Shown: positions 24,120 to 59,164 of the stretch, one piece after another
Position numbering within the stretch: the first letter of the stretch is position 1
Layout of the letters: every line of letters starts with the position of its first letter
NCBI RefSeq assembly: GCF_037042905.1
Contig: NC_087251.1
Location: 7,874,001-7,938,000 of the forward strand
Length of the DNA stretch: 64,000 bases
Source of the DNA: Lytechinus pictus
Lineage: Eukaryota
Direction of reading: 5' to 3'
The notes under the pieces: generated by a model
Told to the model about the DNA's origin: nothing
Database searches by the model: none
Seen by the model: only the letters and a program-made list of their open reading frames with translations
Position numbers and translations under genes: made by a program

Positions 24120-27100
24120 ATGGGACGAAATGAACGATTTCAACTTATGGCCACATTGAATCTTTTATTCTTTGTAGCTTTGACAGCTGCTACAGGTCAG
24201 TATGATAAAATATATCAATGCAGTCAATGCTTGTCACGTGGAATGATTTTAATTGCAGTTTTTTGTTTTCATTCAGTAGCAGGGGCATCGCTTACACTCA
24301 CAACCAGAAAATCTCGAAAAGGGTTTTTTCTTAAATAAGAGAATATACGCGCTTAGCGCGCTCAAAATTCGCAAAAATTGAGGAAGAAAGTTTTCTTTTT
24401 AAGAAAAGACGGGAAATGGCATGTTCAACGAGAATGTTCCCTCTAGTTTAGGATATCCATTTCCTCATTTCATGCGATCTAAATTTCCTTGATAGTTGAA
24501 AACTGTTTATATATATGTGTGTGTGTGAAAAATTGGCCGGCTATTAGCTCACTTACGCGCAATTTACACGACCTTTTATAACATAAACGTAACTCTTGAT
24601 CTGATTTTAATCTTCATCTCCCTTTATGACTTTCTCTCTTTCTCGCTCTCTCTTTAGGTTTTACAGATACAATAAAAAGTAACCCTACATAATTATATAT
24701 TGAAAAATTCAAAGAACTGTCAATAAAGGGAAAAGATTCGAGGATTATTTCACGTAATTTAATCTTTTCTTCTACTGGTGATCAAAACAAAATAAAGGAA
24801 GTAAATCAATGCTATTTTATCGATGGGACATTGGTATCTGTATGGCTTTACTCTAACTATTCCTCTTTCTATGGCCCAAACGATTTCATGTATTTTTCCC
24901 TCGGAAAATACAGATAAGTTCAAACGCATTAATAAAACATTAAACTCATATCAAGTCTTAAGCTGATTTCAAGGGATGATTCGTGTAATTAGTATTTAAA
25001 GAATTGTGCAATATCAAACGTCTCATTGCAGGTCAGACTCAAAATTGCGATGTTGATGAGAGACAGCCAACGGTATGGTTGGGTAAGTTATTCCATAGGA
25101 TTTTGAATGTCATGATGAATATTATGACAAATATATATATCATGCATCTTTGTCATTATATAAAAATATGACCTAGGAGTGCTTCACACAGAAGTTATGT
25201 TCCCAGTTGCCGGTGGTATCATTAGAACAATATCGCGATGATCAGATCATGTGATATTTCCATGGTATGATGCGGAACACCTCGTATCCATGAAGAAGAA
25301 CGTGAGTTTAAACATGTGTGCATTGGCGCAAAAGCATATGACTTAAAGTCAAAGTCAAATCTTTGCAAACACCCCAAGGACCAAGAATCAAGCAGAGCCA
25401 TATATTAAATCAATTACATGAACACTTGTTAACACTGATTGGCATATGAAATATGATAATAATAATTAACAATATTTGTATTAGCGCTTATCACAAAACA
25501 TGTCTCTAAACGCTTTAGCTGCTAATTTCATGTCTTAATAATAGGGATGTTTCACAAAGATTCAAGTCTGACTAAATACCACACGTAAGCACCCTACTAC
25601 CTTCCTATGAGCTCAGCTATTTTTATTCATTTTTTTGTTGGGGATGTGTAATCCTCTTTTGTAAAGTGTACTTGGCACCGTTTTTTTTTTATCTATGATC
25701 TTGTCATGACCTTACCTTGATGATGCTCTTAAGATACTGCTTTGCATTAGACATTGGTTTCCACGCCTTGACGTTGAATGTTTGGAACAGTGGCGTAACT
25801 ACGCGGGGGGGGGGGCATGGGGGGCACGTGCCCCCCCCCCCATCGACTGACCAAAAAAAAAACGGGGAAAAGGAGAAAAGAGGGAAAAAGGAAAAGAAGT
25901 GGGAAAGAAGACAATATTGTTCATTATAATGTTATATCATATCATAATTATGTTTACATAAGAAACATTTTTTTTCATAACTTTATGAAACATAATTTGC
26001 TCAGGGCCTATGTCTTCATTGTTCCTGGTGCTCGCACTGTCTGTTTACCGAGATCTATAATCCTGTTATACTAAAACCTCCCGTTTTCAAGTCAATATAC
26101 ACCAAACTGCCAAATATATTTCCTCGCACTTCCAGTTATTATTGTTTTATGTACAATAGTATGCTTCTTTTTCATGACTACTTAAAGTGATTGCTCCATT
26201 AATATAAACATTTCCTGTCCGTGCTTGTCTGCTCTCCATGAATTCCTAGAATCAGTCCTTAAAATGTCCCCTTTTCTAATCTGAATATCAAAAATTTTCA
26301 GCTCGCGCTTCGCGCTCGCATCATTTGGTTAGTGAACTACGTATGGTCTTCGTGAATTCCTACAAACAAGCCTTAAAATGACCCTCTTCAGGTCTGAATT
26401 TCCTAAATTTTCAGCTCGCGCTTCGCGCTCGCAAGATTTTATTAGTGGAATGGGTATGTTAATCATGATTACAAGTGCTTCAATTTTATGTGCATGTGTA
26501 GATGTAATTCTAACAAAATCAGCAAGCGCTTATTGGCACTCGCATGAGATGGATTCCTAAAATATACTCCTTAAAATCTTACTGTTTGGGGGTCAATATT
26601 TACAAAAATTTCAGCTCGCGCTTCGCGCTCGCATTATTTAGCCAGACAGGTACGTATCATGATTACAAAAGGTTGATAATAATGTCCCTTTTTAGGTCTG
26701 AATATCAAAAATTTTAAGCTCACGCTTGGCGCTCGCATTATTTGACCAGTGAGAGACATATCCGTTTAATGGCACTGTCCTTAAAATGTCTCTATTAGGT
26801 CAGTATACCTGGCAAATGGGCGCGCTTCGCGCGCTCACTTAGTGACTCAAAAATTTTTCTGGTGCTCTCCCAATGCCGTGACCCACGGTACGCCACTGGT
26901 TTGGAAAATAACCACCATACCATTAGCAGGACCGAAAGCGCCTCCACCCATCCCCAAATAATAATGAAATGAAGAAATTAAAATCTACATTTTCATTGCA
27001 AATTTTCACAAAACTTCGCGCAGGTGTGTGCCAACTTCTTTCCATTCAGCCGTTAAAAAACGTCTTTGTGATAAATTGTGTCGCTTCGGTAACACAGCCC

Positions 27101-28711
27101 ACAGCCTGTATACATCCCCCATCCCCCCCTCCCCCTCCCAGATAATTTTTTCTCGCACGACCTTCATGAGCTATTCAAGATAAACCGACTGCATGTACCT
27201 GTAGGTTATGTCATTAAGAAATTTTATAGCGATGCTAAACATCTTAACAAATAAAAATTGCCGTGTTAGAACAAAAAATCTAATATACTATACTTTCAAG
27301 CTCCGTAATATGCATTATGTCAGAACGCTTCTATGATAACACGAATTATCAATGGCAATTAAATGAGCAATATATTGTTTCATGGAATCTTTTTTCCACA
27401 ACGAAATGACAGTACAAGCTTCAAGTATGATATTTTCTGAAATGAAATTAACAAGTTTTAGTTCATTTTGTTTCCCCCCTCTCTTTAAAAATAGGTGATG
27501 AAGATGATGCAAACTTCTGTGATGCCAGCGCCGAGCATTGTGATCACTTTGGTCTTGATTTCGTTTGTGAGGATCCGAGTGGAGGATCACTTACACCTTG
27601 TATCAATGGGACCAAAGTGAAGTGCGCATCACCACCTGCTGTACCCCTGACTGATCCCACTCCTGCCACCACTATAAGAGTTCTTGTATACAACGTCTTT
27701 GAGCTACGTTATCTCTATTGGCAAAGTGGCCAACGAGAAAGAACATGCCGTATTCCACATAAGTTTTTCAGTATGCATCCAGATATTGATGTCATCGTTT
27801 TCAACGAAGTCTTCATGGGAGGTTGCTTTGCCCCCTTCAACGATACCATCGAAACAAGTACCCTTACCATGCGTGACATCATGGACCAATATGGGTTCAT
27901 CTATTACACAGATACCGTTGGCATTGGCGAACCTTTCCCTAAAGTTGAGAATGGTGGAGCGTTCGTTGCTTCTAGGTGGCCCATTGTCAAAACTGATTCC
28001 CGGGTTTTCGACATATCCGAACCATATTCGTGGATGGCTAAAGGAGTTGTGTACACCATGATCAATAAAACTGTTGCTGGACAGAGTGTTATGTACCATA
28101 TCTTTGGAACTCATATGCAAGCTTTCCGAACCCCGAATGCAGACTATGTTCGAGTTGCCCAAGCTACTATCATTCATGACTTCATGCTGGAGCAAGACAT
28201 CGGTGATGACGAACCCGTTATTTATGGAGGTGACCTGAATGCAAGACTGAACACAACCAATGGCGATGACGTCGTTGACGCTCTTGACGCCACACTTCCT
28301 ACGATCATCGGTGAACTCAATGTCACATACGATCACGAGAACAATGATGTTTTTGACGAAAATAACGATACGAACTGGTGGTTGGACTATGTCTTGTATA
28401 GTCGATCCCACATTCAACCTGAAGCTGCTACAATACAGGTCGTTAGGCCTAGGATGTCTACTCCTTTAGAGATTTGCTCGACGGCAATATCCCCGATTCC
28501 AAGCTACCCTAATTCTCAATTTTGCACTGAACGAAAGAATATTACAGACCTATCTGATCACTATGCTGTGTTGGGTACTTTTCATTATAACATGGAATCC
28601 CCTCCAGCAACTGCTACGGAATATCCGCATACGACTGATTCGAGTGTTGGTTGTTGCATTCATAACATCTTGGTAGCACTTACCATTGTGATGGGACTCG
28701 TTTTGAAATAG
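24120..28711 (+). CDS. Sphingomyelinase C-like EEP phosphodiesterase, paralog 1; join(24120..24195,25032..25082,27495..28711), 447 aa, predicted GPI-anchored
   Basis: Signal-peptide exon MGRNERFQLMATLNLLFFVALTAAT; 51-nt micro-exon; GT-AG phase-1 junctions keep the frame. Motifs YNV, FNEVF, ENGGAFVASRWPI, KGVVY, FGTHMQA, GGDLN, LDYV and SDHY; hydrophobic C-terminus. Confidence 0.9.
25788..26898. mobile_element. Non-autonomous hAT-like element, sister of 20211-21772 in opposite orientation (intron 2 of paralog 1)
   Basis: TIR CAGTGGCGTA and perfect 8-bp TSD GTTTGGAA. Confidence 0.9.
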
Positions 28712-29548
28712 TTATCAAATTGAATCCTTGTTGAATATGTTCAGATCTTACATTGTAAAAATGCTAATTTTGTTCATCTATTTGAGATGGTTTGATTATT
28801 CGACGAATCAAATCAAGGTATTGATGTTCAGACTTCTTAAAGTATATAAAAGTTTCCAATCAATCATGTAGACCTTATCTAAGTATTGCTAGCTTATTTT
28901 GAAATTGAAATTGAAATTGAAAAGGTTTTATTAAAATTACTGCACTTTGCAGCCAAAAGGCTGAATTGCGTACAATTTACAGGTATATATACATAGAGTG
29001 TACAGATTTAAAAACATCAAACTTGAAATGATGACGAAAGTATAACGCAACTTAATATATTATGTATACTAAAAGGAAAAGATGAAATAAAAAAATACAA
29101 ACACTGAAAGGTGGTGGTGGTGGAAGGATGCTTATTGATATAAACATCTTAATTCAAACAATAAAAACTTAGTTTTAAGCAGGAACAACAACGAAAGACA
29201 GGAGGGTGTCTGGGGCGAGCGAGCAGTCAAGTTTTATTTAGATACTTTAGATATTTTGCTTCCATCCCAATAATGATCAATTCTCCATCTTTCTCAGTTT
29301 TGCATTGTTCTGTGACCATCGTAATATGCCCTTAAAGTGTTCGTATTCTTCTAAACTTACGGTGTCATATAGAGGTGGCATATGACTATTGTACGATCTT
29401 CGTATGGATTAACGATCACCGTACGATTTACGATTTTTCTTAGCGCGGAGATATACTTATTTTTCAAAAGCGTAAGATGGTAGCCTTTATAGGCCCTACA
29501 CATCGTAAAATCATCGCAAGGGCATCATACGATCAGCGCAGGGGTATT

Positions 29549-29740
29549 GCGCGATAGCTCAGTCGGTAGAGCGGGGGTTTCGGATTCCGGTGACCCGGGT
29601 TCGATTCCCAAGTGGTGCGCTAGTGCCCTTTGGTAAGACATTTATCCTCATTACCAGGTCCCTCGGAGAGGACCTTAAGCCGTTGGTCCCCTGGTTGCTT
29701 GCTCACAGGCATTCGTGCTTTCTTAGCAGTCAGGTAAAAA
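29549..29740 (+). mobile_element. tRNA-derived SINE
   Basis: A box TAGCTCAGTCGG and B box GGTTCGATTCC, then gtgccctttggtaagacattt and a ctcggagaggaccttaagccgttggtccc block reminiscent of a conserved SINE central domain. Confidence 0.7.
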
Positions 29741-31436
29741 ACCTCGGTATGGCATTGTACAATGTACAGTCATCGTATGATAAGTGTAATACGGTTTGAT
29801 CGCTGCAGTCATGGACATTGTACGATATCTGTGCGAGTTACGTATAACGTCTATGTTTCTGTCTTAGCCTTCTACGATGTCTAATGACTGTGCAAAAATC
29901 GTAGAATAATTCGTAGCATAACAAATTAGGCATTATGCTGTTTAAAAGGACGAAATACATGTGTGAATTTGAAATACAGCTTTTAGGAAACATATGTGAC
30001 TGAAAAAAACTCATCAAGATTGTTGTACATCTTATGGAAAGCATTGCCATTTTACAATACTTAATCGAGGTTAGATATTCGTTGATTCGCCAATCTCATT
30101 TTGTGTGTTTACCCCTTGCCCGTTCGTTAATCATTTACACAACTTTATGTATTAATACAATACATTGTATATTGTAAAATAAAGTTTCAACAAATTTTAG
30201 TGTTTGGACTTATCTTGCCTTACCGGAATGAGTTGTCGCGAGTTTGTTTTTACATTATAGTGTGGACTATTATTCATGATAAGCGTTAGTTGATATCTTA
30301 TGAACACCTGTTTGTACAGGAATAGGTTTGACAAATAAATCGCGATTCAATGATAAAAATTACACATTCTCGATTGGTTTATTATTATTACAGGACTACA
30401 ACAATCAATTCGTCTCGAGTGATTTTTTTTTCACCAAGGCAGAACTCCATTTACAGAACAGAGAGACCCATTAAAAATGACATAAATGTAAAAATGTCTA
30501 TAAATTTGATGATGGCGCCCGCGTAAAATCAAAATCCAGCAGAATAAGCCTGTTCACGGTTATAAACTGCGTACGAGCAGTAAATGGTATTTTGATCTTT
30601 AAAAAAATGAAGGTGCAAATTCACTGACATAGGCATTTGTGATTTGACGGTTATTCATGTGTTCCTTTTAAAATATTCTTATCATCACATCCAAGCTGAA
30701 GAGTAACAAAGTCTTCATAATCACCGGCATTTGACAGTAGCCGTAACAATAGTCAAATCTGCCAAAAGCAGACAATAAAAGAAACAGATTTCCAAACTTT
30801 ACCCCTGATGTAATACTCGAGTCACCTGGTATATAAATGCCTTTCTTAGAATTTGAATGCTTTGTCGGGAAAGCTTACGCAACATCTTCATTTGAAAATG
30901 TTAGTGCTCATCCTAGTGAAAAATCGCATAGTTTGATCATGAGCTAACCGTGAACTCGATTATCAAGATATAAAGATATGAAAGTTAGGTTTAGGGTAAC
31001 TGTACCACAATTTTACTTGTCGCTCCCAAGTAACCCGTTGCTTTCACAAACTTTCGGAAGTTTTTTCATTATTATTTTGCATCCTCAGAAGGGATATTCG
31101 ATTGCAATTGCATTTACCGTCTATACAAAGGCAAAATCTACATTCAGATTAAGAAAATCTTCTCCAAATCAACACCCTTGGACCCTAATTCATAAAGTTA
31201 GTTTTAATGATTGTACAAAGGTGGTTCTAATTGAACCATGGTGTACATTATTGAAATCACCTTAGTGAATTCGGCCTAAATTATGAATGTGTTTGTCCAT
31301 GGACCTATAGGTCCATGGTTTGTCTAACGGATAACCATAGAGATAGTATATCTCTATTGAAATCTGACTATTCCTCTTTAATCCAACCCCCGGTCACCCT
31401 CGCCGGTATCCAATAAATACACAATATACCTTTGTA

Positions 31437-34400
31437 GTAGACTTGTTAAGAGGTTGAACGCTGCATTTTTGAGTACAAATGTCCCACTTGGCACAAATGT
31501 TCCTTGAGTCAAAAGAAAAAGATTCATCCAAAGAGACACGCTGTATCTATGCAAATAAGCAAGTAATTTGCATAAATTTGCATATTATGTCGATATAGTG
31601 AAAACAAGTATTTAATAATATATATTTAACCAGAACTGCCCTAAAATTGGAAATAAACACTTAAGGTAAGAAAGGGAAGAAAATTGTCATAAAATAATTG
31701 GGATATCCTTGTTTATTATTACCTAATTTACATAAATTATGCAAATTATAATTTAAAACAGAGTATTTTTTCATGAATCCTGAACTGTTTTAAAAAAACA
31801 GCAACTAATACACAAATGTCAACATTCTACATGAAAGAGAATATATTAGCGAAAACATCGATATGCTTCATGACAGTATTAGTGTCTTAATTTGCTGAGA
31901 AAGAGGGCAAATATGTCAAAATGTATGACGTGATATTGCGCAAAAACGAGACCAAAACAACCTCTATGTCACAGTCACACTCACGAATGAGACAATAAAG
32001 CGATCGATGGTATGTCGTTCGAGATAAAGCAATCCCAACACAATAGCTTCCATCGGCTTCTCGCATCGCTTTTGTTGGTGTGTCTGCCACACCATAATAT
32101 ATGATACATACGGACAAAATGCATTTCGGTATCGGTAAAACACTATTAATTTTGTTTTATTTGTTTCTAATTTGTTTCTCTTGGAAAATTTACAGGAGAC
32201 ATTGCTTTGCAGGTTACTGCTTTAATGAAACTCTGGCACATGAATCATGACGAATGTATCATACCTCAATCCATATTTTAACTTTATTAAAATCTTTTGG
32301 AGACCCCAAAGTGGCAAAACTGCATCCTCCAGCATTCCCGCCACTTTACGAAACCAGTTTGACTTGTCTAATCGACTTGGAAAAGACAGATGTATGAGAC
32401 ATCAGTTAACATGTTTCCTGAAGAAAGTTTTTTTGTTTATTTAAGCCTACGCCCAGGGGAGCCATCCGAATTTACCCCATCCCATCTCCGTATTTCGACT
32501 TTAAATAAAAAATATCGTGTTTTAAAGCCATCGGCAAGGCAAATTGCGTTTTTGGTATAATAAAGCAACTTTTATATCTATATCTTTATATTTACATTCA
32601 TCATTATTGATATTATTATAGTTATTATTAATATTATTATCATTATTATTATTATCATTATTATTATTATCATTGTTCTGCCGTTTGTAATAGTGCTCTA
32701 GTACAGTAAAGGCTATAACCCAACAGGATCATGCCTAGGATACCCTTTCTCTTTTTGGTTTTATGTATTAAAAAATAGTTTATTGTCTTTAGAACTTTTA
32801 AAAGATTACTTTTGTTTGTATTGATATCTTGGAATAGATTGAGGAGAAAATACTCTATAACTGACATGTAGAGGAGCTGTGGTACATTGAAGAACAGCCA
32901 AACAGCCCTTCATTGATTCCACTCTATGTTAACTTTAAATATTTTTAGAGCCCAATCGGAAGAAAGATGCATTTCTACTACACACAGTAAAGCCTCTTTG
33001 CGTTCTCCTCTTGAAAAAAAAAAAAAAACATAGAAGGCATTGTTTTATATCTCATAAAATAAGTTCGTGTACGTGACGGTGGCCTGTCGAAGTTGCCCAA
33101 CCGTTTATTTTGTTTTGACAATATTTATTTAGAATATCGTCTAATTTAAGCCCTCATCTGGAAAAGGGCACTTATTAAAGGCAGCATCTACATTATATAG
33201 AGGAGGCCCTGGCAATGGGAAGAGGGGGCTGAAGCTTGTTAAAATTCTTGGGACCAAAATTTTACATTGAACCTTTTTTGCTTTTCAAATTTACATCAAG
33301 AAATTTAACAAGCACTGATAAACAAAAAAGATTGCACTACAAAATGAAGTTTTTTGGGTAACGTTTCTTTTTTTTCGTGCTGTCACATCTGCCGGAATTC
33401 CAGGGGGTGCTGTCTATGGAGAATAACACACGCAGCACACCCCCCCCCCCCTTCCGGAAAATCTTGCAGGTGCTTCAGCCCCCGCTTCCAAGTACCAGGG
33501 CCTCCTCTATATAATGTAGATGCTGCCTTTAATAAGTGCCCTTTTCCAGATGAGGGCTTCATTTAGACGATATTCTAAATATATATTGTCAAAACAAAAT
33601 AAACGATTGGGCAACTTCGACAGGCCACCGTCACGTACACGAACTTATTTTATAAGATATAAAACAATGCCTTCTATGTTTTTGTTTTTTCAAGAGGAGA
33701 ACGCAAAGAGGCTTTACTGTGTGTAGTAGAAATGTATCTTTCTTCCGAATTGGCTCTAAAAATATTTAAATTTAACATAGAGTGGAATCAATAAAGGGGT
33801 TTGAGTATTTTAGAGCTTACGTGTGGCTTTTCTTCTATGTACCACAGCTCTTCTACCTGTCAATTGTAACGTATTTTCTATTCCAAGATATCAATACAAA
33901 CAAAAGTAATATTTTAAGAGTTCTAAAGACAATAAACTATTTTTGAATAAATAAAACAAAAAGGGGAAAGGGTATCCTAGGCATGCTCCTGTTGGGTTAT
34001 ATCCTTTACTGTGCATTATTACAAACTGCAGAACAATAATAATAATAATAATAACAATAATAATAGTAATAATAATGATGATAATAATATTAATAATGAT
34101 AAAAATATTAATATAGATAAATATGAAATATATATATAAAAGTTGCTCTATTATACCAAAAACGCAATTTGCCTTGCCGGTGGCTTTAAAACACGATATT
34201 TTTTTTGTATTTAGTGTCGAAATACAGAGAGGGGATGGGGTAAATTTGGAGGGCTCCCGTGGACGTAGGCTTACAAAAAAAAACTATCTTCAGGAAACAT
34301 GTTAACTGATGTCTCATAAATCCGTCTTTTCAAAGTCGATAATACAAATCAAACTGGTTTTGTAAAGTAGCGGGAATGCCGCGGGGGAATGCAGTTTTGC

Positions 34401-35294
34401 CACTTCGGGGTCTCCAAAAGATATATATTTTAACAAAGTTAAAATATGGATTAAGGTGGGGGTACATTCGTCATGATTCATGTGCCAGAGCTTCATTAAA
34501 GCAGTAACCTGCAAAGCAATGTCTCCTGTAAATTTTCCAAGAGAAACAAATTAGAAACAAATAAAACAAAATTAATAGTATTTTACCGATACCGAAATGC
34601 ATTTTGCCCGTATATACCATAGATTACGGTGTGGCAGACACACCAACACAAGCGATACGAGAAGCCGATGGAAGCTATTGTGTTGAGATTGTGTTATCTC
34701 GAATGACATACCATTGATCGCTTTATTGTCCCGTTCGTGAGTGTGACTGTGACATAGAGGTTGTTTTGGTCTCGTTTTAGCGCAATATCACGTCATACAT
34801 TTTGACATATTTGCCCTCTTTCTAAGCAAATTAAGACACTAATACTGTCATGAAGCATATCGATGTTTTCGCTAATATATTCTCTTTCATGTAGAATGTT
34901 GACATTGTGTATTAATTGCTGTTATTTATAAAACAGTTCAGGATTCATGAAAAAATACTCTGTTTTAAATTATAATTTACATAATTTATGTAAATTAGGT
35001 AATAATAAACAAGGAAATCCCAATCATTTTATGTCAATTTTCTTCCCTTTCTTACCCTAAGTGTTTATTTCCAATTTTAGGGCAGTTCTGGTTAAATATA
35101 TATTCTTAAATACCTGTTTCCACTATGTCGACCTAATATGCAAATTTATGCAAATTACTTGCTTATTTGCATAGATACAGCGTGTCTCTTTGGATGAATC
35201 CTTTTCTTTTGACTCAAGGAACATTTGTGCCAAGTGGGACATTTGTACTAAAAAATGCAGCGTTCACCCCTTTTTTTGCAGTTAACAAGTCTAC
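31437..35294. mobile_element. Foldback-like palindromic element (~1.8-kb arms, ~236-bp spacer)
   Basis: Arms 31437-33235 and 33472-35294 are imperfect reverse complements along their length. Termini GTAGACTTGTTAA/TTAACAAGTCTAC are flanked by TA on both sides; no convincing ORF. Confidence 0.9.
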
Positions 35295-36168
35295 TATTGC
35301 CATGGCTCATCTTGGGATCTTGCACTGGCATTTTGGAGAATGGATTCACTGAAATCTCGATAATAGCTGCAGATGCATCACTTTACCTGCCTAAAGCATG
35401 TGTTGGGTGGGTTATGGAGCCGTGATATGTGCAAACGCCGGGATATGTGCAAACAACGGTATATATGCAATATTTCGCCGGGATTTGTAAAAACAACGGA
35501 ATTTGTGCAAAGCCACGCCGGGAAATGTGCAAATCTGTCAAAATTTATCAACGGTATCTGTGCAAACGTGACGACGGGATATGTGCAAATTAACAATTTT
35601 CACGGGAAAAGTGAAAACCTCCGGGATATGTGCAAATCACTGCATTTATCCATATAAAGGCTATTTCTCATGAAATGTTTCAGTCATAAAATTACTGTTA
35701 AAAATGAGAAACATGCCTGCATAAGGGAGAAGCTACACATCGGCAATGAAACGCTTTTCAGAGAGGCGGCGGGGGGGGGGGGGGGCACCAACCTTAAATT
35801 GAAGACCCACTATCGTTTGGAATAACATGGATGTAGAGTGTAGTCTTTTAATGCTCCAGACCCGGTCATTTAATCATTTGAAGATCCTTCTGAACTAAGA
35901 TCCTGTACTAAAGCATACATAAGGAGCATAGCCATTCAAAAATAATATAAAAAAACTGCAACACCTCACCGTTTACCAAATTAAGACCTTGTAGAAATGA
36001 ATATAGAATGTAGTCTTTACCCTAGACCTTGTTGTATCAATAACAAAAAAAAATATGATTTAATACCTCACCGTCTAATTCCTATCGAATAAGTTGTTGT
36101 TGTTGTTGTTGTTTTAGCTTATACGGCGCGTGTCATTCAGTAGTGAATATTTGCGCCAAAAAACCACA

Positions 36169-36259
36169 TCCACGTACCGAGCCGGATTCGAACCAGCGAC
36201 ATAAGGTTAATCATCAATCATCTACAGTCCTCCGCTCTAACCAACTGAGCTATCGGTGG
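36169..36259 (-). tRNA. tRNA-Tyr(GTA), intron-containing, probable pseudogene
   Basis: CCACCGATAGCTCAGTTGGTTAGAGCGGAGGACTGTAG-[~13-nt intron]-AACCTTATGTCGCTGGTTCGAATCCGGCTCGGT(ACGT)GGA, then a T6 terminator (36158-36163). It has an anticodon-stem mismatch and a 4-nt insertion in the acceptor stem. Confidence 0.8.
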
Positions 36260-44762: not shown

Positions 44763-44827
44763 AACAGCAACCTCACTTATTGTAGCCTTAAAGATGCATG
44801 AGGTAATGTGTTCATCAGAATAATTCT

Positions 44828-47351
44828 TTATTGGCTCAAGGCAAAGGCAAACCCTAAAGGAAGTATCAGAGAAAGAATTATGCTGGTTGTCATAGCATCA
44901 GTACCAGAGTCGGTTGTTAGCAGGTCTACAGGCTGTGAAGTCACAATCATCGGAGGTAATGTCGTAGTGCTACCAAAATCAAAGACACCCATAACAGCGT
45001 AGTGGTCTGCTAGATCTGTAACCGTCATGTTGAGGAGACACCTCTCAGAGTTGGCATAAGTTGGTACTACTGCTAATGATAACATGCAGACATCAAACGG
45101 TTCTTGAGATCTGGGTCGAACCACTTCTAAGGTAGAGCTGCTTGGTTGAAGGTGAGATTTACTAAATACGGCATAGTCGATCCAAGATGTGCCGTTTGAA
45201 ACAAGGAGATCGTTTTCAGGTCCATCATAAGTGTAAATTCGATCTCCGATAAAGTTTGGAATGGCTGCATCAAGGGCTTGCATAACATTATTACCATGTC
45301 GCGTTCCATTTCGGGCATTCAGATCCCCTGCGTAGATGACTGGCTCATCATCGGGAATATTCTGTTTCATCATCAATTCATGCATTTCCTCTGCCTGCGA
45401 GACACGGACGATATCTGCTGTAGGACGCGATGTTGCTTGTAAATGTGTTCCCAGAATGTGGTAAGTCATGCTAGTACCGTCAACAGTTTTCTCAACTTTA
45501 GCATAAACAGCACCTTTTCCAGATATTGCGTCAGCCGTTGCCATGACTGAATCGGTGTAGATACAGTTATCTTCCTTGATGATAGGCCAACGAGAGGCTA
45601 TAAATACACCACCATTTTCTAGTTTGGGTATCCGTGGTGGATCACCAACAGTATTAGTGTAGTAGATGAAGCCATATTGAGTCAGAATATCTCGAAATGT
45701 GAGTATGCTGGCTCCAATGGTAGAATTGAACTCAGAGAAACATCCTCCCATGAATGCCTCGTTGAAGACAATCACATCAACATCGGGATGCATTTGAACA
45801 ACCTCACGAGGGATGCGACAAGTACGTTCCCGTTGACCATTCTGGTAGTAGAGGTATCTTAGCTCCCAGACGTTGTATGCTATGACACGGAATGTTGAGA
45901 CTGGGGTAGGAGGAGCGAGAGGGATGGGTGGTGGAGAAGCGCATAGGACTTTTGTTCCATCTGTACATGGTTCAAACTCTCCACCGTTTGGATCCTCACA
46001 GATGAAGTCTAGACCGAACAGGCCACAAGACGTCTCATCTGCTTTGCATTTGTTGATATCTTCCTCATCACCTATCCAAGTAAAAGAAAATAAAGAAAAT
46101 ATAATTCTTATTAGAGTGATACCTCAGTGCTTCAAGTAAAAAGGGGTTTTTAAAAACGAAGCCGAGTAACTTCTTTAATCCAAGGGTACAACTTCTGTGA
46201 TCTAATATGCGCAAAAACATATTTATCTGCACAAAAATAATATATCCCATACCAATTCTGATTTCTCCCCCTGGATTTGATACCATGACATTATCGTGCT
46301 TTCATTTTAGAATCACCCTCAGATTCATAATTATGTTATGAAAAGTACATCATATGCATAGCATTTAGAAATGTATGCGTCTACTGTCCGTCATATACGA
46401 AAGCACTATAATTTGTTCAATTTGTATATTTACCATTCAAATCGTTTTATGGAATATTATACGGGTACTGATTTTGTTAATACTTACCCAACCACACAGT
46501 TGGTGTTCCCTCATCTACGTCACACGACCCTGAAAGTAAACAGTGGTATCAATTTGGTTAATTATTTATCCAAATGAATTATATATATATATATATATAC
46601 ACACATATATATATATATATATATGAATATATATATATAGAGAGATAGAGAGAGAGGGGGGGAGTCGATGTACTAATCTAGGCTTGAGGTAGGTATCCTA
46701 CATAAATAGTAACATAATTACCATTCACCTGTATTTTTAATTATTCTGTTGCAATTGGCGTAGAAATAATACTGTAAAAGGAGGACATAATTATGTTATG
46801 AATAAACATAATCTAGTTTATTTATTGAGAATTTTCACTGAACTATTATGGTTTAAGCACAACCTTTGGGCGTTGAGGCATGTCACTGTTTTCTAGAATG
46901 TGAAAGTCCGTTTTCTACATTAACTTCTGACTGACAAGCCTTTGTAAAACCCAGATTACAAAACACGCACACACACCCAACACACACCTCCCTGTCACTT
47001 ATAATCACACACGCAGACACATCAATCTCGTCACGCCCACCCATGCACCCTTACACACCCCACACTATCATTCTCCTTTGATCTTCTGTTCCACAGCTAA
47101 AGTGGTAATTTTCACTTTATTGTCATAGTACCAATGCTGATGTAAGTACCCACCGTTATTATTATGATTTTATGGTACACAATCCTATAACAATTTACTA
47201 CAACACCTAGTCCCCAGCCGCTGAGGAAATAGTAGAATCATCTCTTTATAATTAAACCATGCGATTAAAACATTAGATTTTTGTTCTCACCTTTGGCCTG
47301 AATGACAAAAAACAATGCCGTTGCTGTGAAACAGAGCGCTGATAGATGCAT
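44828..47351 (-). CDS. Sphingomyelinase C-like paralog 2; complement(join(44828..46071,46488..46529,47291..47351)), 448 aa, predicted GPI-anchored
   Basis: Signal exon MHLSALCFTATALFFVIQAK; micro-exon SCDVDEGTPTVWL; phase-1 GT-AG junctions. Motifs FNEAF, ENGGVFIASRWPI, DAISGKG, GTHLQA, AGDLN, IDYA and ADHY. Confidence 0.9.
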
Positions 47352-48951: not shown

Positions 48952-51583
48952 TCAACAGTCAATGACTAATTTTGTGATTAAAATGATGAATGTGAGAGAT
49001 ACAACCAAATTGTTTGAGGTAAGATATCCAGTCCCCGAATCAGTCGTTGTTTGGAAGTCTGTTGGAGTTAGGAAATCGATTCTGTATTGAAGAGTTCCAA
49101 GAACTGCATAGTGATCAGATAGGTCTGTAATGTTCTTTATTTCAACGCATTGGTCAGAATTGGGATAGCTTGGGAAAGGTGATATTGCCGTCGAGCAGAC
49201 CTCTAAAGGAGTAGACATCCTAGGTCTCACGACCTGTATTGTAGCAGCTTCAGGTTGAATGTGGGATCGACTATACAAGACATAGTCCAACCACCAGTTC
49301 GTATCGTTATTTTCGTCAAAAACGTCATTGTTCTCGTGATCGTATGTGACATTGAGTTCACCGATGATCATAGGAAGTGTGGCGTCAAGAGCGTCAACGA
49401 CGTCATCGCCATTGGTTGTGTTCAGTCTTGCATTCAGGTCACCTCCATAAATAACGGGTTCGTCATCACCGATGTCTTGCTCCAGCATGAAGTCATGAAT
49501 GATAGTAGCTTGGGCAACTCGAACATAGTCTGCATTCGGGGTTCGGAAAGCTTGCATATGAGTCCCAAAGACATGGTACATAACACTCTGTCCAGCAACA
49601 GTTTTATTGATCATGGCGTACACAACTCCCTTAGCCATCCACGAATATGGTTCGGCTATATCAAAAACTCGAGAATCATTCTTGACTATAGGCCACCTAG
49701 ATGCAATGAATGTAGCTCCATTCTCAATTTTTGGGAAAGGTTCGCCAACACCAACGGTATCCGTGTAATAGATAAATCCATATTGGTCCAGAATATTACG
49801 TATGGTTAGGATACTTGTTTCGATGGTGTTGTTAAAAGGAGCAAAGCAACCTCCCATAAAGACTTCGTTGAACACAATGACATCTATATCTGGATGCATA
49901 CTGAAGACTTTTCGTGGAATACGACATGTACGTTCCCTTTGACCACTCTGATAATAGAGATAACGTAGCTCAAAGACGTTGTATGCAAGAACTCTAATAG
50001 TGGTGGCAGGAGTGGGATCAGTCAGGGGTACAGCAGGTGGTGATGCACACTTTACTTTGGTCCCAATGATACAAGGTCTAAGTGATCCTCCACTCGGATC
50101 CTCACAAACGAAATCAAGACCGAAGTGGTCACAATGCTCGGCACTGGCCTCACAGAAATATGCGTCATCCTCATCACCTGTCAAATACAACCAAAAGTGA
50201 ACGTTATACTCAACGTTGCTTACAACGTATTTACCTTGCATTATCATCACTTCAGTATAAAGTTTAAATGCTTTCCTTTCATAATCGACATTTCGAAATA
50301 ATGCCTTAATGCTTTATCCATACATATGTGCCTTATATCAATGACAGATTGCTTAATGTTATTATGTTGTTATAAAATCATTATAGTGGTTTCCATAATA
50401 TGCCTGTATCGTATCTTGAAGCTCTTCGGCACAAGACATCATAAACTGGGAGCCACCTCCTGACTAGTCTGCAGGCACATACCCTGATTGGAACTTTGAT
50501 CAACAAGTGTGCCTCCACGCAAAGACTACCACATACAAAACTTGCTGTTCCAATACCTGAGCGAGAGAGCCTTCAGTACACAAGGCATTAGTAGGCTGCA
50601 CATTCAGTCCCTTAACTCGAGTGAAGGGTTTGTCCAGCAGACTACCTTCTGTTAATAAAGAGACCAGTTCTTCACAATCAATCAAAACCATGGATCTCAT
50701 TTGATTGTCAGATAAGACAATTTAGTCAGTGCTGATAATTTTTATGAAATTGCCATAGCACAAGGACCTGAGGATACAAAACTCCCATTGCGTTTTTTTA
50801 TGCTGGGAAAAGGCAGAGCCCTGTGAACAACTTATTTACAGGGGGGTCGACTGATGTGAATTTAACAAGCAAAAAAAAGGTTTCAATTTAATAGAAATGA
50901 AGGTCATTTTGGTCCCGGAAAATTTGACGAGCAAAGCACCCCTCTTTAAGGGCCATGGGAGGAGGCCAATCTGGATATTACAATATATATCAACAAGATG
51001 ATCCATATCATGAACATGATCAGTTCTTCCTAATACATTATTAACCAAAATATTCAAATTGACGTACCAAGCCAAACCGTAGGTTGTCCATCATCTACAT
51101 CGCAATTGTTACCTGCAAACATATAATAAACAAGAAAAATTAGAGCAATCAGACCATGGTATAAAAAATTGCATTATTTTCTTTCATCGTAGACGTCCAT
51201 CTCGTACATCTTATTTCATAGATCTTCCGTAATTTCTTTCACTTAATTTTGCAACTTATGTCCGACTCCTCCTCTAAATGCCATATTTTCCAAATCATGG
51301 ATTATTTGGCAACTGTATGTCATAGTGCAGTGTCCTCTATTTGTAGACCTATACAGCCGTAAGAGCTGACAGAAAACTGATAGAAATTTAAGATTTATAA
51401 AAATTTAAATTCTAATTTAAGATGGGTGGCTTTTAGTGCTTCCTCTTCCAATATTGATTGCACAGGACTCTTAAATACGTAAATTCATTCTTACATAGTA
51501 TACTTACCCTTACTGGTGGTATAGACTGATAAAAATATGATACTCAACGCAATTAATGTCAAAGGGTGTTGAACAATTCCCAT
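48952..51583 (-). CDS. Sphingomyelinase C-like paralog 3; complement(join(48952..50177,51068..51112,51508..51583)), 448 aa, predicted GPI-anchored
   Basis: Signal exon MGIVQHPLTLIALSIIFLSVYTTSK; micro-exon NNCDVDDGQPTVWL; same catalytic motifs; closest to paralog 1. Confidence 0.9.
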
Positions 51584-51614
51584 CTTGAATGTTACAGAGT
51601 GACAGGTCCGAAAT

Positions 51615-51647
51615 ACTGAATGCTGCTATCGGAGGGTCATGTATATA
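51615..51647 (-). promoter_or_regulatory. Candidate TATA plus initiator core promoter of paralog 3
   Basis: TATATA (51647-51642) lies 30 nt upstream of the A of a TCAGT initiator-like motif (51617), which is 34 nt before the ATG. Confidence 0.45.
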
Positions 51648-52678
51648 GGAACAATACGTGAGATTGGTAAATATTTCTGACCGCTAATAGCTCATCAGTT
51701 CAACCTTACCAAGGAATGCAATCGACTAGATTAGACTTCATCGAGATAACCAAACTAAAGTGTACACTTCTTGCGGGACTTCATGATACCAAAAGTCAAT
51801 TTTGACTGAACGTCCATGCAAGTTCTATCTTAGATGGTATACTTAACATGCTTAAGTTACGGTGTGATATGGCGTCACACCGGTAGGCCTACATATCCGT
51901 AATACTCTTTGACTTTACATTATTAATCTATGATTTTGTAATTTTTTTCTTTTGCAACGGAAAAACATCAACAAACACTATACTTCGACGAATCCCCATC
52001 CAATTTCTCTCTTTCTTGGATGGTCTGTTTATTTCAATTTCTGACTCTCTTTGTCTCTCTGTCTGTCCCTCTCTCATTCTTTCTCTCTTTGATTTACCCC
52101 TGTATAATCTCCCCTCTGTTTACCCTCATGATGTCAGCTTATCTTCTCTTGACTGTACAAATCAATTTTGAACTTAAATAAAGAATCACACGAATACTCT
52201 TCATTTTGTCTTTATTCTCCAATTTATTTTGGATGGGGGGTAGCAGTTCACTTACGTTTTTTTTTTTTTTTTTTTATAGTAAATACACAAATCGTTTTGA
52301 GCCGTTTTGTAAATACTTTTCTTCTCTTTTTTATTTATAAAATACAATTATCAAATCTTTTGTATTTGTTTTTGGAGCCTTGAAGGGTGTAACAATTACC
52401 TTTTCATCTCTCTTGGAATACTGCTATCGGTAAATTAAAGAGTGTCACCTGGGAATTGAAATATACCACTAGATTTTCCGTCTAAAAACATACCTTTAAT
52501 AAAACCCACCCAAAGCAATGGTTTTTTTTTACGTGTATGTATGAACAAATAGCTAAATATGAAATCGATAAGTTGCACGTTAAGTTACATATGATAGATT
52601 CACTAATGACTTAATTTATCACCATTAGTATCGAATAATTGTAGATCATTTTATGGAATCACCAATCTAGACTGATCC

Positions 52679-55600
52679 CTAGAAAAGTAGGCCTGAGAGT
52701 ATCGATAAAATGAAAGTAGCCATGCAAAGTCTGATGGTGACACCTGAATCTGTAGTCATTATAGAAGAGGTTGTATCTGATTTTGTGGTTTGGTCAGATT
52801 CTGTAGGTTCATGGGTGACAACGTTCGTGGTGCTGGGCTCACTTGATTCGGTTGTTACCGCTTTGTTATCAAACTTGTAGACACCAATTACTGCAAAGTG
52901 ATCAGCAAGATCAGTAATATTTTGAGTCTTTCGACATCTATCAGAGTCCGCATAGGTAGGGAATGGTGTGATGGCCTCCATACAGACTTCAAAGAACTCT
53001 GATGCCCTAGGACGCAGGATTTCCTGAGAAGCTGTTAACGGATGGAGGTAGTCTTCATGGTAGATTACATAATCCTTGTAGGATGCACTGTCGCCGTCTC
53101 TAGCATCATTGAGTAAGCCGTCCGTGGTGTAATTGAGTTCACCAATGATTGGTGGGACCAAAGCATGAAGGGCCTCGATGATGTTGGCAGTGTTGGACCT
53201 AGGTTCCCTGTCATAGTAGTTCGTGTTAAGATCACCTGCATAGATTACAGACTCTCCTGATGAGAGTGCCAATTTCACGACCAGATCGTGCATCTCTGTT
53301 GCCTGACTTACACGAACCCTGTCAGCATTTACTCCTTTTGATGCCTGTAGATGGGTCCCAAAGATGTTGTAATATCGACTCGATCCATTTACCGACTTAA
53401 GAACCCGAGCATACTTTGCGCCTTTTGCTGACAACGCATCTGCAGTCGTCTTGATCGCTTCCGTGTAAATTGTCTCATCTTCGGAAATTATTGGCCACCT
53501 AGAAGCAATAAAGACACCACCGTTCTCAAACTTGGGTAGTTCCCTTACTTCTCCAACTGTCTTGGTATGGTAGATGAATTCATGCTGTACCAGAATATCT
53601 CGAATAGTTAGAGTGCTCATCTTAACGGTTGAATTGAACTTGGAGAAGCAACCACCCATAAAGGCCTCATTGAATACAATCACGTCGATGTCTTGACGAA
53701 GACCGAAGAGCTCATGAAGAATACGACACGTTCGTTCTCGTTGCCCGTTCTGATAATAGAGGTATCGAAGTTCCCAGATGTTGTAAATGACCACACGGAG
53801 TTCAGATGACGGTGTCGGGTCATCAAGAGGGATGGGATCTGGAGCAGAGCACAGGACTTTGGTGCCATTAGCGCATGGTTCAAGAGAACCACCGGACGGG
53901 TCTTCACAGACATAAACGAGACCAAAATTAGAGCACTGATATGGTTCCGCCTCACAGTACGTTACATCATCTTCATCGCCTGAAATGAATTTATATGAAG
54001 AAAAAAAATCAAAGAGTAAAAATCACCCGATTCTTTTAGAATGCATGTGTTACAATATTTACATATTCATAGTTTGTGAGCTACCTATATATTATGAAAG
54101 AATTATTCAGTATAGAAAGTGAATCAGAGTGCAAGTGATGCACTCTGTCGAGAGAGGTGCATAAAATGGTTCTTGTACCTAAATTACGGCTTCTGAGAAG
54201 AACATACAATACATTATAAATCTCTGGCTTGATATCAATCCGTGAAAATATGGCTGAAGGAAATTAAAACTCAGATATTTGAATATAAAGGGAGAGTTTT
54301 TTACTGAAAGTTTTTTAAATTTTATTTTTCGATTTCTTTTTCTGACGAGCTAAGTGATTAGGTTGTGGAAATGAATTTTAAAAAAAGTGAAGAAAAGCAA
54401 TTGAGATGATATTTACCAAGCCATACCGATGGAGTGTCTTCCGGTTGGATTTCACAGTCTTGATCTGATAGAATGAAAGATAAAAGATTTGAAATTGATG
54501 ACTTAAATGAGAATAGGCGGATCCAGGGGGCCCGAGGGGCCCAGGCCCCACTATTGGCGGAGCAAAAAAAAATGAAAAAAAAACAGGGGGAAGAAAGAAA
54601 AAAAAGAAGGGGAAAGAAAGGAGGAAAAAGAAGAGGAAAAAATAAGAGGAGTGAATAAAATAAGGTCAGGGGAAGTCTTGGAAAATTATTTTTAAGAATA
54701 TTTCATGTCACTATATTAAATTTTCGCTCGCGCTTCGCGCTCGCATTGCCTGTTCGATGAGATACACATCTTGCTCAATAGGCTGATATGTAGCTTAAAT
54801 ATCAAGTTTTGAAATCAACATACAAAGCATATTTCAGCTCGGACATCGAGCTTTCATTATTTTGTTTGATTTACAATTTGATCTTTTAAGTGCTCTGTAA
54901 AATGTCCGTTTTATGTTGTAAATATCATTTGCAGCTTTTTGCGCTGTGCGCTTGCATTATTTGATTTGCCGAATAGGCCTACATATTGTCTTTGTTTATT
55001 CCATAAGATTCTATCAATTCTATAACAAACTACTTAAAATTCCCCTTTTATGACAGTATATCAAAAATTTCGTCTCGCGATATGCGCTCGCATTAATTTT
55101 TCAAATATATCAACTCATGAATCCTATTCATGATTACAAAAGTGCTAAAAATATCCAGTTGTCAGGCCTCAATATCAACAAATTTCACTCACTCTTTGTT
55201 CTTATTGAATCAATAAATAAATAATAGAATTTTCTACTAAAAAATTCCTTATAACTACATTGTCCCTTTTTCAGAAAGGAATATCGACAAGATTCATATC
55301 GCGCTTAGGAAGAGAAATCGGAAGATAGTCATCATTTTCATATGATTACAAAATGTCCTTAGGCCTAGAATGTCCAGGTCCTAGGTCAAAATAATAATAA
55401 ATATATCAACTCGCGCATCGCACTCGCATCATTTATTAAGTGTTATCCACATCCACTTCACAATTCCCCGACACAGCGCTTAAGATAGTCCTTTTCATAC
55501 CGGATCAAATATTTTCCGCTTCGCCCTCGCATTATTGATTTTCTTGATAAAAAAAATGAAATGCATTCAGAATGCCCAGATTCTGTCTAACTCTAAAACA

Positions 55601-58600
55601 CGCCCACACATTTTTATTGAAATACACAGCTTGATCTTTATTCAAAACGTGCTAATTATCCAGTTTCAGATCAGAACATACAAATTTTCTGCTCGCGCTT
55701 TGCGCTCGCATTATTAATGAAGGAAGATACCAAATTACCCATCCTTTTTCATGATTTACAAAACATGAATAGGATGTCCCATTTTTAGGCCTGAAATCTC
55801 TTTTTTTTCCGCTCGCGCTCCGCGCTCGCATCAATTGTTTGGTTATTTACAGTGCTTAGAATGTCAATTTTTTAGGTCGGAATGTCAAAAATTTTCAGCT
55901 CGCGCTTCGCGCTCGCATTATTTAATAGTTAGAAATATGCATCGTCTTAATGGCTAACTGCAAAACGTCCCTTTTTGATCAAGACAGAACCCATATTAAA
56001 AATTTCTGCTCGCGCATCGAGCTCGCAGTAATTATCTAGTTACATACGCATCTTCTTCAGGCTTATAAACATTGCCCAGAATGTTCAATTTTCAGGACAA
56101 AATACATGAAACTCCAAAAATATGTTTTAATGTTGTTTTATAAGAATAATGCTAAGAAATGACTTTTAGGACATGCGCGTTGTGCCCCCCCCCCCAAACC
56201 CCTTCAAAGAAACAAACAAAAATCTTCTTTGAACGGCCGATCGGGGAGAATATGGGTGAAATTTATTTTCGCCCCCCCCCCCCCTATTGGCGGAAGCTGG
56301 ATCCGCCCCTGACGTGTGTGATGTCTGAACCTACGGGTGTCGACCTAGGGGTAAGGCATTTCAGCCACGCATTAAATCTTTGAAAAAAATATCCCCAAGA
56401 AGTCCTCATGCAAGAAAGGGAAGTGATGGCACCATGAATTTTTCAAGTGTGTGTGTGTGGGGGGGGGGGGGTGGACTGCAAGCGCAGACCAATAAAATTG
56501 TGTACCGCAATAACAGATTTTCCAGGGGGCAACGGTTCGAACTAGGGAAGGGGTGGACGCCCCCAGCCGACACTGAGAAAGGGACTTGTATTGCACGTTA
56601 TCACTCTTATATTCTTCTTCTCTCGCACGTTAGGCATGGTTAGGTAACTTAACCCTAATCTAGCCGGGGGGTTGATTCGACCCCCCCCCCACGACATTTT
56701 CCGTGACCATTCCGCTGCGCGAAAATTTTTGACCGCGCAGCTCGCTGACTCTTTACTTTCTAGTCTTGCGCATCTTTTGAGACCAAATTTACGATTCCCG
56801 GCTCTGAGGTTCGTAATTACGCAACATTACGTAAGTGCATGTCGAACCCAAATTGCTCAAAAACGTGATTTTGTGTACAAGGCCAAAGTAAATTGAATTT
56901 TCTCAACTTATTCATAAAGATATGATTATTTCAACTTTGATAAGCTGAAATTAATTGATTTCAACATAATTATGCTTTAAAAGGGTTCTGCTATAAAGTT
57001 GGTGAAAAAACAAAGAAAAACTATAGGTCGAAAAACAAAGAAATACATAAGAAATTCATAAAACAATGAAATACATAAGAAATTATTTTCGAACCAGGAT
57101 TTTCTTCGTTTGTAATTGTTAGCAATCGCATAGAACACCCGGTCTTCTTAAGGTTAATAAATGTCATGTATACAAGTATAAGTATGTTAAAATACATTAT
57201 CATTGTCTAATAATATTTCTTTCAACTTAGTAAGAGGGGTTTCAAATGGGCGTCTTTTATTCTTCTTTAATACCTCCGCTGCAAAACATTTCGACTGATG
57301 TGCAAAAAACACGCACAATGGGTTGTGACAGAGGCAAATTTTACAGAGGCATACACTTAACGTTTGGAGATTGCCTCTCAGGTATCGAGTTGAGAGGCAA
57401 AATGGCTTGTTATTTTATTTATTTATTATTATTATTATTTTTTTTTTTTGGGGGGGGGATAAACCAGCATGTGACCAAATGATAATCCCTGCAAAAAATG
57501 ATTATGGTTAAGTATAGGCTTTATCATAATTTATATAAGATCCGCCTATGTGCGTGATAACGATGGAAACTGAGGGAAGAAATCGAGCAGGCCTTCAGGG
57601 AACTCTTTCAAGATCTAATCCCAAATATATGAAATGTGAACTTGCGCCCCCAACGATACTTCCTTCGAGGCAAATGAACAACATCGGCCTTCTAAAAAGA
57701 CACATGCCATCTGGTATTGAGATATTTTCTTTTGCAATTAGTAATTAATTAGATTAATACATTTTAAAAGTGGTTAATCCAGGGGACCAACCCACCGATC
57801 AACTAAAATTAATTGTCTTCCCCCTCTCCCTTTTTAGGAAGAAAAAATTACAACTTTACAGAGATAAAATTTTGTCATATTCTTTTTGGCCTATAAGCAT
57901 ATATATACATTAACCTCAAAATCAAATAGGTGCGGGGGGGGGGGGTAAAGGATTGGGGTATCTAAAATACATCTAGCAAAATTCAAACAATTTTTTGTCC
58001 CCTTCCCCTCTGATGATAACCTTACTATTCCCTATACTGTTTTTTTGTTGGGGTATGTTGATGAGGTTGATAATAATGCAGGCGTGCAAAATCATTAAAG
58101 AGGAGTCGCTTAATAGTTATTTTTATCACGATCTTCGTTTGAAATACTGTAGTTAAACAAACGTTATGTAGGATTACTTCTTTAAATTGTACATGCTTGA
58201 ATGAGGAAGTTCATCATGGCGATAAGTTGGTTTCAATAAAAGCAACCCCCCCCCCAAAAAAAAAGAGTAGCAGTTGGAATATTTATTTTCCGATTTAAAC
58301 CGCATTGAAAATAAACATAACGGTTCAAATGGCTTACAGTCAAAGAAAATATAGGCCTATACAGATTGAATTGGCTGGATATCATGTTTATCAGCTGTGC
58401 CAATCGTGACACTGTTGTTCTGTCATGGGGTCCAGTGAAGAGAAGAACAGACAATAAAAGGAAAATATAAGAGTGAAAGAAAAGGCAAAGCAGAGTTCAT
58501 AAATACAATACTTGGTATATGAACTTTACATAGTCGTTTAATAGTCTAAACATCCACGCTCAAGGATTAAATATATTTTTTGGTGTTTAAGGTTTTACAT

Positions 58601-59164
58601 ATTTTGGCAAAAAGAGGAGATGCAAACCAATTTAATTTCATGCATGAGTATTAAAATAGGCTTATATCGAAAAGAGAGTGTCATTATATAGTATATATGT
58701 ATATATAAGTAAATCGGAGAAATCATGTCATTTCAAATGGAAAGCTATAGCGAAATGAACGAGAGCTTTTGTGATTATAAAACGCGTTTGAATACTCGTG
58801 TAATAGATTTGCTTATCATTGGTTCTAAACTTAGAAGCAATCGACATTTGGATTTGATTTGGAGTAAAACAACCTATAATATCAGCGAGTCAAAAATATA
58901 AATGGAAAAATTTACAAATTAGGCCTACACTCGACTTTTAGGAAAATCAATTTTCGCATGTGTATGAAAAGATAACCTGATATTAAAAAAAAAAAACACT
59001 TGTTCTGGAGTGCAAAAGAAACTGATAACAGTTTTTTTTATGTAGGCCTATATCCAAATAGTTACATTATTATTTAAAAGGTAAAACTTACCCGCTGCAC
59101 TCTGAATTATTGTAGAAATGATCAAGCTGAAGGTAATAAGTAAAGTCTTTCTGAACACCGTCAT
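52679..59164 (-). CDS. Sphingomyelinase C-like paralog 4; complement(join(52679..53979,54417..54464,59092..59164)), 473 aa, predicted GPI-anchored
   Basis: Candidate signal exon MTVFRKTLLITFSLIISTIIQSAA (G|GTAAGT), less certain than the other exons; micro-exon QDCEIQPEDTPSVWL. Motifs FNEAF, ENGGVFIASRWPI, DALSAKG, GTHLQA, AGDLN and ADHF; long S/T stalk. Confidence 0.85.
54512..56311. mobile_element. hAT-like element with internal cgcgcttcgcgctcgca tandem array (intron 1 of paralog 4)
   Basis: Termini ggcggatccag/ctggatccgcc; same internal unit as 2550-4223; TSD not evident. Confidence 0.6.
56653..57090. mobile_element. Truncated piggyBac-like MITE related to 37842-38605
   Basis: TTAA|CCCTAATCTAG start; inverted similarity to 38200-38605 (aaaattttttgaccgcg, gctcgctgact, ttttgagaccaa). 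Confidence 0.6.

Follow-up and report, generated by a model that had tools for sequence, protein, structure and literature searches.

The 64,000-nt stretch of the sea urchin Lytechinus pictus genome analyzed here (the window; NC_087251.1, positions 7,874,001 to 7,938,000) holds four genes, A to D, whose products resemble the secreted sphingomyelinase (SMase) C enzymes of bacteria; a fifth member of the cluster lies 6 kb to the left. On balance, we favor the reading that these proteins are Mg2+-dependent surface ecto-enzymes of the bacterial SMase C type, predicted to be anchored by glycosylphosphatidylinositol (GPI), that would cut sphingomyelin-like headgroups and stem from one ancient bacterium-to-animal transfer. 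The window proteins are 98-100% identical to L. pictus proteins that databases already label 'sphingomyelinase C-like' on grounds of similarity, so the finding surprises less than it might. They represent a real animal form, apparently undescribed so far, of an enzyme known from bacteria; our literature search found no paper on the animal family, with subscription papers and bioRxiv supplements mostly outside its scope and a mention in a transfer table possible.

A bacterial SMase C-type fold and active site

The four long open reading frames of the window (27452-28711 on the forward strand; 44828-46123, 48952-50313 and 52679-54022 on the reverse strand) match Pfam Exo_endo_phos as well as TIGR03395 (E 7e-23 to 5e-32). 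The motif series noticed in an earlier, sequence-only reading of this DNA, with its catalytic Asn, Glu, His, Asp-x-Asn and Asp-His, was recovered in all five paralogs. Equivalents of Bacillus cereus SMase N16, E53, H151, D195, N197, D253, D295 and H296 are present in 5/5 paralogs and in 44-46 of 46 named animal homologs. PMC9710629 assigns roles to N16, E53, N197, H151 and H296 and places E53, H296, N16 and N197 in the central site.

An AlphaFold model of the L. pictus protein P0001, which is 99% identical to the gene B product, was predicted with a mean local confidence score (pLDDT) of 90 and a template-modeling score (pTM) of 0.85. Its best structural matches were bacterial SMases (Z 34-35.5, root-mean-square deviation (rmsd) about 2 Å, about 270 residues), and superposition on B. 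cereus SMase, the comparison proposed with the sequence-only reading, gave Z 35.2 and rmsd 2.0 Å over 273 residues (Foldseek E 2e-25). The corresponding values were Z 26.6 for human SMPD2 and Z 22.3 for SMPD3, with likewise ordered Foldseek ranks, and the family profile scored B. cereus SMase at 184.6 bits versus 40.1 for SMPD3 and 20.6 for SMPD2. SMPD2 and SMPD3 belong to the same superfamily, with the same catalytic core and presumably the same chemistry, but are far more distant. They also lie on the cytosolic side, held there by transmembrane or palmitoylated segments, and have no signal peptide. As modeled, a bacterial SMase C-type fold and active site apart from SMPD2/3, as first read from the motifs, is supported.

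With the bacterial enzymes (B. cereus 2DDR, Staphylococcus aureus beta-toxin 3I41, Listeria SmcL 1ZWX, Streptomyces 7CNE; TIGR03395), the urchin proteins have in common this fold (Z about 35), the central metal and acid-base residues, a signal peptide, a protruding C-terminal beta-hairpin and a neighborhood in the tree. They differ in an extra N-terminal four-cysteine module, a longer hairpin with a Cys pair, an edge metal site of which half is changed, and the addition of a Ser/Thr stalk, a GPI-type tail, introns and N-glycosylation sequons.

A four-cysteine module shared with bacterial relatives

The N-terminal module spans 42 residues, contains four Cys and has no Pfam match. Modeled alone, it is predicted to fold as beta-alpha-beta-beta (pLDDT 96). 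Structural searches with this model, made with known small Cys-rich domains such as MVL lectin, the APP copper-binding domain and defensins in view, returned a best Z of 3.9 and no Foldseek match with E under 0.001, the likeness to MVL lectin (Z 3.4) was not significant, and the ESM Atlas gave nothing usable. A profile built from 32 repeats in 15 bacterial or presumed bacterial proteins had matches in 83 of 206 proteins, including all four from the window (E 3e-9 to 3e-7) and none of the distant bacterial SMases. The family reveals an unannotated disulfide module and, with it, an uncharacterised branch of bacterial proteins.

These Cys-module SMase-like proteins, from Nitrospinota, Zetaproteobacteria, Gammaproteobacteria, Thioalkalispiraceae and Pseudobdellovibrionaceae bins, are the nearest relatives of the urchin proteins (30-38% identity). 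They carry zero to five copies of the module together with the hairpin Cys pair, and the nearest group also has a further, inner Cys pair. Unlike the urchin genes and proteins, they have no introns, no tail (0/17) and only 0-3 sequons, and are mostly basic rather than acidic. We compared the ten Cys conserved in the urchin proteins with 17 bacterial proteins of this type and found the four module Cys in 15/17, the hairpin pair in 17/17 and the inner pair in 10/17. Since eight of the ten were already in the bacterial relatives, they were not acquired after transfer, contrary to what the sequence-only reading had proposed. One urchin Cys is animal-only (29/46 animals, 0/17 bacteria); the exon-2 Cys that is likely to pair with it gave an ambiguous picture.

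The module also occurs on an unrelated SMase-like branch (P0203, P0183, P0178), indicating that it moves between enzymes. Three bacterial relatives (L001:1338-3047, L002:4929-6140 and P0081) have four or five modules in tandem and are very basic (isoelectric point above 10). In Nitrospinota-type relatives, a lipobox-like Cys stands 10 residues ahead of the module Trp, the spacing of the urchin exon-2 Cys; we regard this shared spacing as no more than a lead.

Distribution, phylogeny and direction of transfer

In a HMMER search of 1.84 billion representative sequences, 863 proteins reached E 1e-30 or better, and 150 of these were listed. Named animal matches came from 18 species in four phyla: 11 echinoderms (all five classes), 3 hemichordates, the annelids Owenia and Dimorphilus, and the flatworms Macrostomum and Cichlidogyrus. 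No chordate, arthropod, nematode, mollusc, cnidarian or sponge was among the named matches, nor was there a named fungal or choanoflagellate match, in searches that were word-limited or returned name-less records and so leave absence unproven. The closest non-animal relatives were on bacterial contigs (Thioalkalispiraceae, Pseudobdellovibrionaceae, Zetaproteobacteria, Nitrospinota and Thermoanaerobaculia bins), and the near bacterial genes adjoin rpoA, lspA, an RluA-family synthase gene, hemE and ribA.

Two trees were built with IQ-TREE from the catalytic domains only, using 60 of 207 sequences for the first and 63 chosen sequences for the second; SMPD2/3 were not included, and labels of relatives are presumed unless backed by a source name or genome locus. 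The first tree united 26 animal or animal-like sequences as a single clade (100/96) and placed it among the Cys-type bacteria (98/95 with six of them, 99/98 with all fourteen). In the second, to which oomycetes and ten unnamed module-less sequences were added, 17 named animal sequences formed one clade (100/99) that was sister to eight bacterial sequences (100/97), with the oomycetes elsewhere. The best trees thus show the nesting among bacteria, with patchy metazoan spread, that the sequence-only reading had put forward as support for horizontal acquisition. Weighing these placements against the tests below, we consider a bacterium-to-animal transfer of an SMase C-type gene to be probable.

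The alternative that survives best, though we regard it as unlikely, is that the same enzyme is an old eukaryotic gene, inherited vertically and still kept by oomycetes, certain protists and part of the animals, from which the sister bacteria would have received it. A cousin family is indeed present in oomycetes and in one EukProt transcript: the oomycete 'sphingomyelin phosphodiesterase' proteins (Phytophthora, Pythium, Albugo) are secreted eukaryotic proteins within the same larger bacterial-type clade (94/86 in the second tree). However, the tree with animals beside bacteria is 18.4 log-likelihood units better than the one uniting the eukaryote-like sequences, and vertical inheritance would require at least two eukaryote-to-bacterium transfers, with no named fungal, choanoflagellate, sponge or cnidarian match having turned up in the word-limited or name-less searches above. 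The shared characters agree with the tree and tie the animals to the bacteria, not to the oomycetes. The module is present in 13/17 animals, 6/8 near bacteria and 7/10 farther bacteria and in 0/20 named oomycete proteins; the inner Cys pair is found in 8/8 near bacteria and in no oomycete; and a Cys-rich insert, absent in animals and near bacteria, is found in 16/20 oomycetes and 10/10 farther bacteria. The oomycete proteins, on their separate branch, also lack the hairpin Cys pair. Hairpin and insert counts refer to cleanly parsed sequences (without P0154, P0047, P0177, P0185, P0243, P0279 and P0283) or to the Cys census. The oomycete family (P0258-P0283; Phytophthora, Pythium, Peronospora and Albugo) is conserved and has, besides the insert, a Cys-rich C-terminal piece.

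Several results weigh against a bacterial origin by one early transfer. The close bacterial relatives are few, mostly metagenome bins or name-less records, and spread over phyla (in 185,579 genomes, 79 loci were found, of which 6 are close and one more is frameshifted), which would be expected also if bacteria were the recipients. With oomycetes added, the node joining near and farther bacteria with the animals is weak (83/63). In approximately unbiased (AU) tests, forcing animals, oomycetes and the ten module-less sequences to be monophyletic was not rejected (p 0.095), nor was monophyly of the Cys-module bacteria (p 0.111), leaving the direction of transfer unproven. A single early transfer also requires many losses. 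Of the acquisition read earlier from the sequence, its age and the bacterial identity of the nearest non-animal relatives held up, while transfer itself is favored only; the vertically inherited eukaryotic clade named at the time as the refuting case fits worse and yet is not rejected.

Simakov et al., 2015 (PMC4729200) describe intron-bearing ambulacrarian genes whose best relatives are microbial, read there as possible old transfers, and the urchin SMase C-type genes follow the same pattern as these deuterostome/marine-microbe genes. A word search of the paper's two text supplements found no mention of sphingomyelin.

Predicted anchoring, mechanism and substrate

In each protein, exon 1 encodes the signal peptide, exon 2 a Cys and the first module residues, and exon 3 all else: the module, the catalytic domain, a Ser/Thr stalk and a terminal hydrophobic stretch followed by 0-2 residues. 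A common TTDS motif places a Ser 21-27 residues before the C-terminus. GPI-anchored proteins typically combine a signal peptide, an omega site of small residues lying 17-31 positions before the C-terminus, a terminal hydrophobic run and no cytosolic tail. The urchin proteins fit this pattern and are predicted to be GPI-anchored on the cell surface, a call made from hydropathy and pattern alone, which belongs with the points against the full account. N-glycosylation sequons number 7, 4, 7 and 5 in A, B, C and D. Against composition-matched shuffles, A and C show an excess (p about 0.01); B (p 0.25) and D (p 0.17) do not.

The most likely activity is that of a secreted, glycosylated, GPI-tethered, Mg2+-dependent phospholipase C whose substrates would be sphingomyelin-like lipids, either on the cell surface or within a lumen. 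The signal peptide would direct the protein into the secretory path, where Cys pairing and glycosylation of sequons would take place, and a GPI anchor would take the place of the C-terminal tail, attached to the TTDS Ser or close to it, leaving the enzyme on its Ser/Thr stalk at the outer leaflet. There, the Asn/Glu/Asp/Asn/Asp/His site would hold Mg2+, the two His would play the acid and base roles known from B. cereus SMase, and the products would be phosphocholine, or a related headgroup, and ceramide. A local role might be to generate ceramide at the surface or to digest sphingolipid from the diet.

We also weighed whether the proteins, though of bacterial origin, act on something other than sphingomyelin, for example phosphatidylcholine, a phosphonolipid, GPI anchors or a soluble phosphodiester; the 'sphingomyelinase' label would then reflect likeness only. 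The TIGR03395 scores are 81-111 bits, far below the family cut-off of 248.2, and the proteins share only 25-30% identity with solved SMases, which leaves room for a different substrate. The central residues are, moreover, shared across the DNase I-like superfamily. The edge metal site (F55, N57, E99 and D100) and the membrane-docking hairpin tip (W284 and F285), as set out in PMC9710629, are both altered: F55 is kept in 5/5 paralogs and E99 in 4/5, while N57 is Gly and D100 is Asn in 5/5, and the Cys-paired hairpin (strands 355-366 and 379-387 in the AlphaFold model) is about 12 residues longer, with aliphatic residues and Pro-x-Tyr in place of the Trp-Phe tip. The same paper, however, shows that edge site and hairpin tip vary among bacterial SMases too and that two metagenomic SMases are active. 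In sequence and fold, proven SMases are also far nearer than the rest of the superfamily; we find a different substrate quite unlikely. The retained central residues and altered edge site and hairpin suggest that the chemistry was kept and the docking parts of soluble toxins were changed. Tethering may stand in for the parts with which soluble toxins dock on foreign cells, the aromatic hairpin tip and the edge metal site; on this view, these would be tamed, local enzymes rather than hemolysins.

Bacterial SMase C is added to cells as a reagent that mimics outer-leaflet ceramide generation. A native, tethered animal version, if the prediction is true, would make such ceramide generation testable in the embryo and gut of a genetically tractable sea urchin.

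History within animals

A recent or lineage-specific transfer was ruled out by the named homologs in 18 species and the one animal clade. The likeliest form of the transfer is a single event preceding the deuterostome-spiralian split, which, if true, would be a rare old transfer common to both groups, followed by gene loss in many lineages. Alternatively, related marine bacteria might have passed the gene separately to ambulacrarians, annelids and flatworms, or it might have moved from animal to animal following a single transfer. Either course would suit the patchy spread over only four phyla and an animal subtree that departs from the species tree, with the flatworm sequences and one hemichordate paralog outside annelids and ambulacrarians. 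Both are improbable, given that 100% of bootstrap trees unite the animal sequences as a clade that includes no bacterial sequence and that ancient paralogy explains the odd subtree.

The donor bacterium would already have had the four-cysteine module and the disulfide-stapled hairpin. A donor akin to the Bacillus, Staphylococcus, Listeria and Leptospira toxins, as had been read from the motifs, did not hold, with Leptospira far outside and the hairpin tip and half of the edge site different. The tail appears to have been added afterwards. Among the 44 named animal proteins that could be parsed, a clear stalk and hydrophobic tail is present in 25, all from echinoderms or hemichordates, and four are unclear; the 15 tail-less proteins are all seven from annelids and flatworms and eight crinoid and hemichordate paralogs. 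None of nine animal-clade transcripts without a source name and none of 17 bacterial proteins had such a stalk and tail, and the tailed proteins group in one ambulacrarian subclade. By these comparisons, the GPI-type tail is a later addition that probably arose in an ambulacrarian paralog and is confined to echinoderms and hemichordates among the proteins compared, in agreement with the earlier proposal that a membrane anchor was gained after acquisition and before expansion.

In its fullest form, which we hold only tentatively and think somewhat doubtful, early bilaterians would have domesticated a bacterial membrane-attacking phospholipase together with its module, and ambulacrarians would have made from it a family of GPI-tethered ecto-sphingomyelinases, an animal class separate from SMPD1-5. 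These would be active at neutral pH on the outer leaflet and targeted by a binding module of four cysteines that has not been described before, with the upstream Cys perhaps a relic of a bacterial lipoprotein anchor.

Among hemichordate variants (P0041, P0109, P0044 and P0045), one has a fused C-type lectin domain, one has two complete module-plus-enzyme units ahead of the tail, and the others are tail-less with three modules.

Gene models and genomic neighborhood

All five matches in a whole-genome search fell within the cluster, with no further copy. Genes A-D have three exons each, with GT-AG introns, both of phase 1, at positions identical across the genes, and their spliced products are stop-free (447, 448, 448 and 473 residues, respectively) with a hydrophobic N-terminus and C-terminus in each. 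The four intact paralogs of one architecture, with the whole catalytic domain in one exon and introns solely 5´ of it, were thus as first described. Positions 24120 and 59164 are the ATGs of the outermost genes, A and D.

Gene A, on the forward strand, consists of exon 1 with the signal peptide (24120..24195), exon 2 with the Cys and start of the module (C-x9-W-L-G; 25032..25082) and exon 3 (27495..28711), which runs from the module through the whole SMase C-type catalytic domain to the stalk and tail. Both of its introns (836 and 2412 nt) are skipped in a contig of public run X16. The other genes are on the reverse strand. Gene B has its signal-peptide exon 1 at 47291..47351, exon 2 at 46488..46529 and exon 3 at 44828..46071 (98.8% identical to P0001), and the equivalent exons of gene C are at 51508..51583, 51068..51112 and 48952..50177 (98.3% to P0005). 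Contigs from runs X1 and X2 skip the introns of both (761 and 416 nt in B, 395 and 890 nt in C). For gene D, exon 3 (52679..53979) is 100% identical to P0008 over the exon, and exons 1 (signal peptide; 59092..59164) and 2 (54417..54464) are predicted, no splice joint being listed in its public-run contigs, which are short and of low depth. The fifth paralog, found by the genome search, has exon 3 on the reverse strand at 7867036-7867812 of the chromosome (G000:C7; locus L085:2799-5243). This exon is open and keeps all catalytic residues, and the gene has 8 sequons, a shorter tail and an exon 2; its signal-peptide exon 1 was not located.

No run with matching contigs is on record as RNA, the exons were without cover in the raw RNA runs X19 and X20 (about 6% read), and gene A was not detected in runs X1, X3 and X15. 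We take this run cover as no evidence on function.

Genes A and C form an inverted pair with 91% DNA identity, 92% alike in the comparison of pairs, and with a dN/dS of 0.15 and are under purifying selection. Other paralog pairs are 50-56% identical in amino-acid sequence, with saturated synonymous sites. Splicing and this dN/dS rule out pseudogenes for A-C. Contamination is ruled out by the spliced introns, the orthologs in 18 species and the animal genes that flank the cluster, a GABA-B-receptor-like exon and spastin. The former is the first coding exon of a class C G-protein-coupled receptor (L086:884-1309, reverse strand), left of the cluster; first exons of spastin, with an MIT domain match, are at 61933-62400 of the window (forward strand) and at L088:1895-2119.

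Between the fifth paralog and gene A is a Pao/BEL-type long terminal repeat retrotransposon (window 12181-19172, reverse strand), with Pfam matches to DUF1759, aspartyl protease, reverse transcriptase, Peptidase_A17, integrase and DUF5641 in several separate frames and two terminal repeats that are 96.8% alike. An inverted repeat of 1.8 kb, 90% alike, lies between genes A and B (window 31448-35272).

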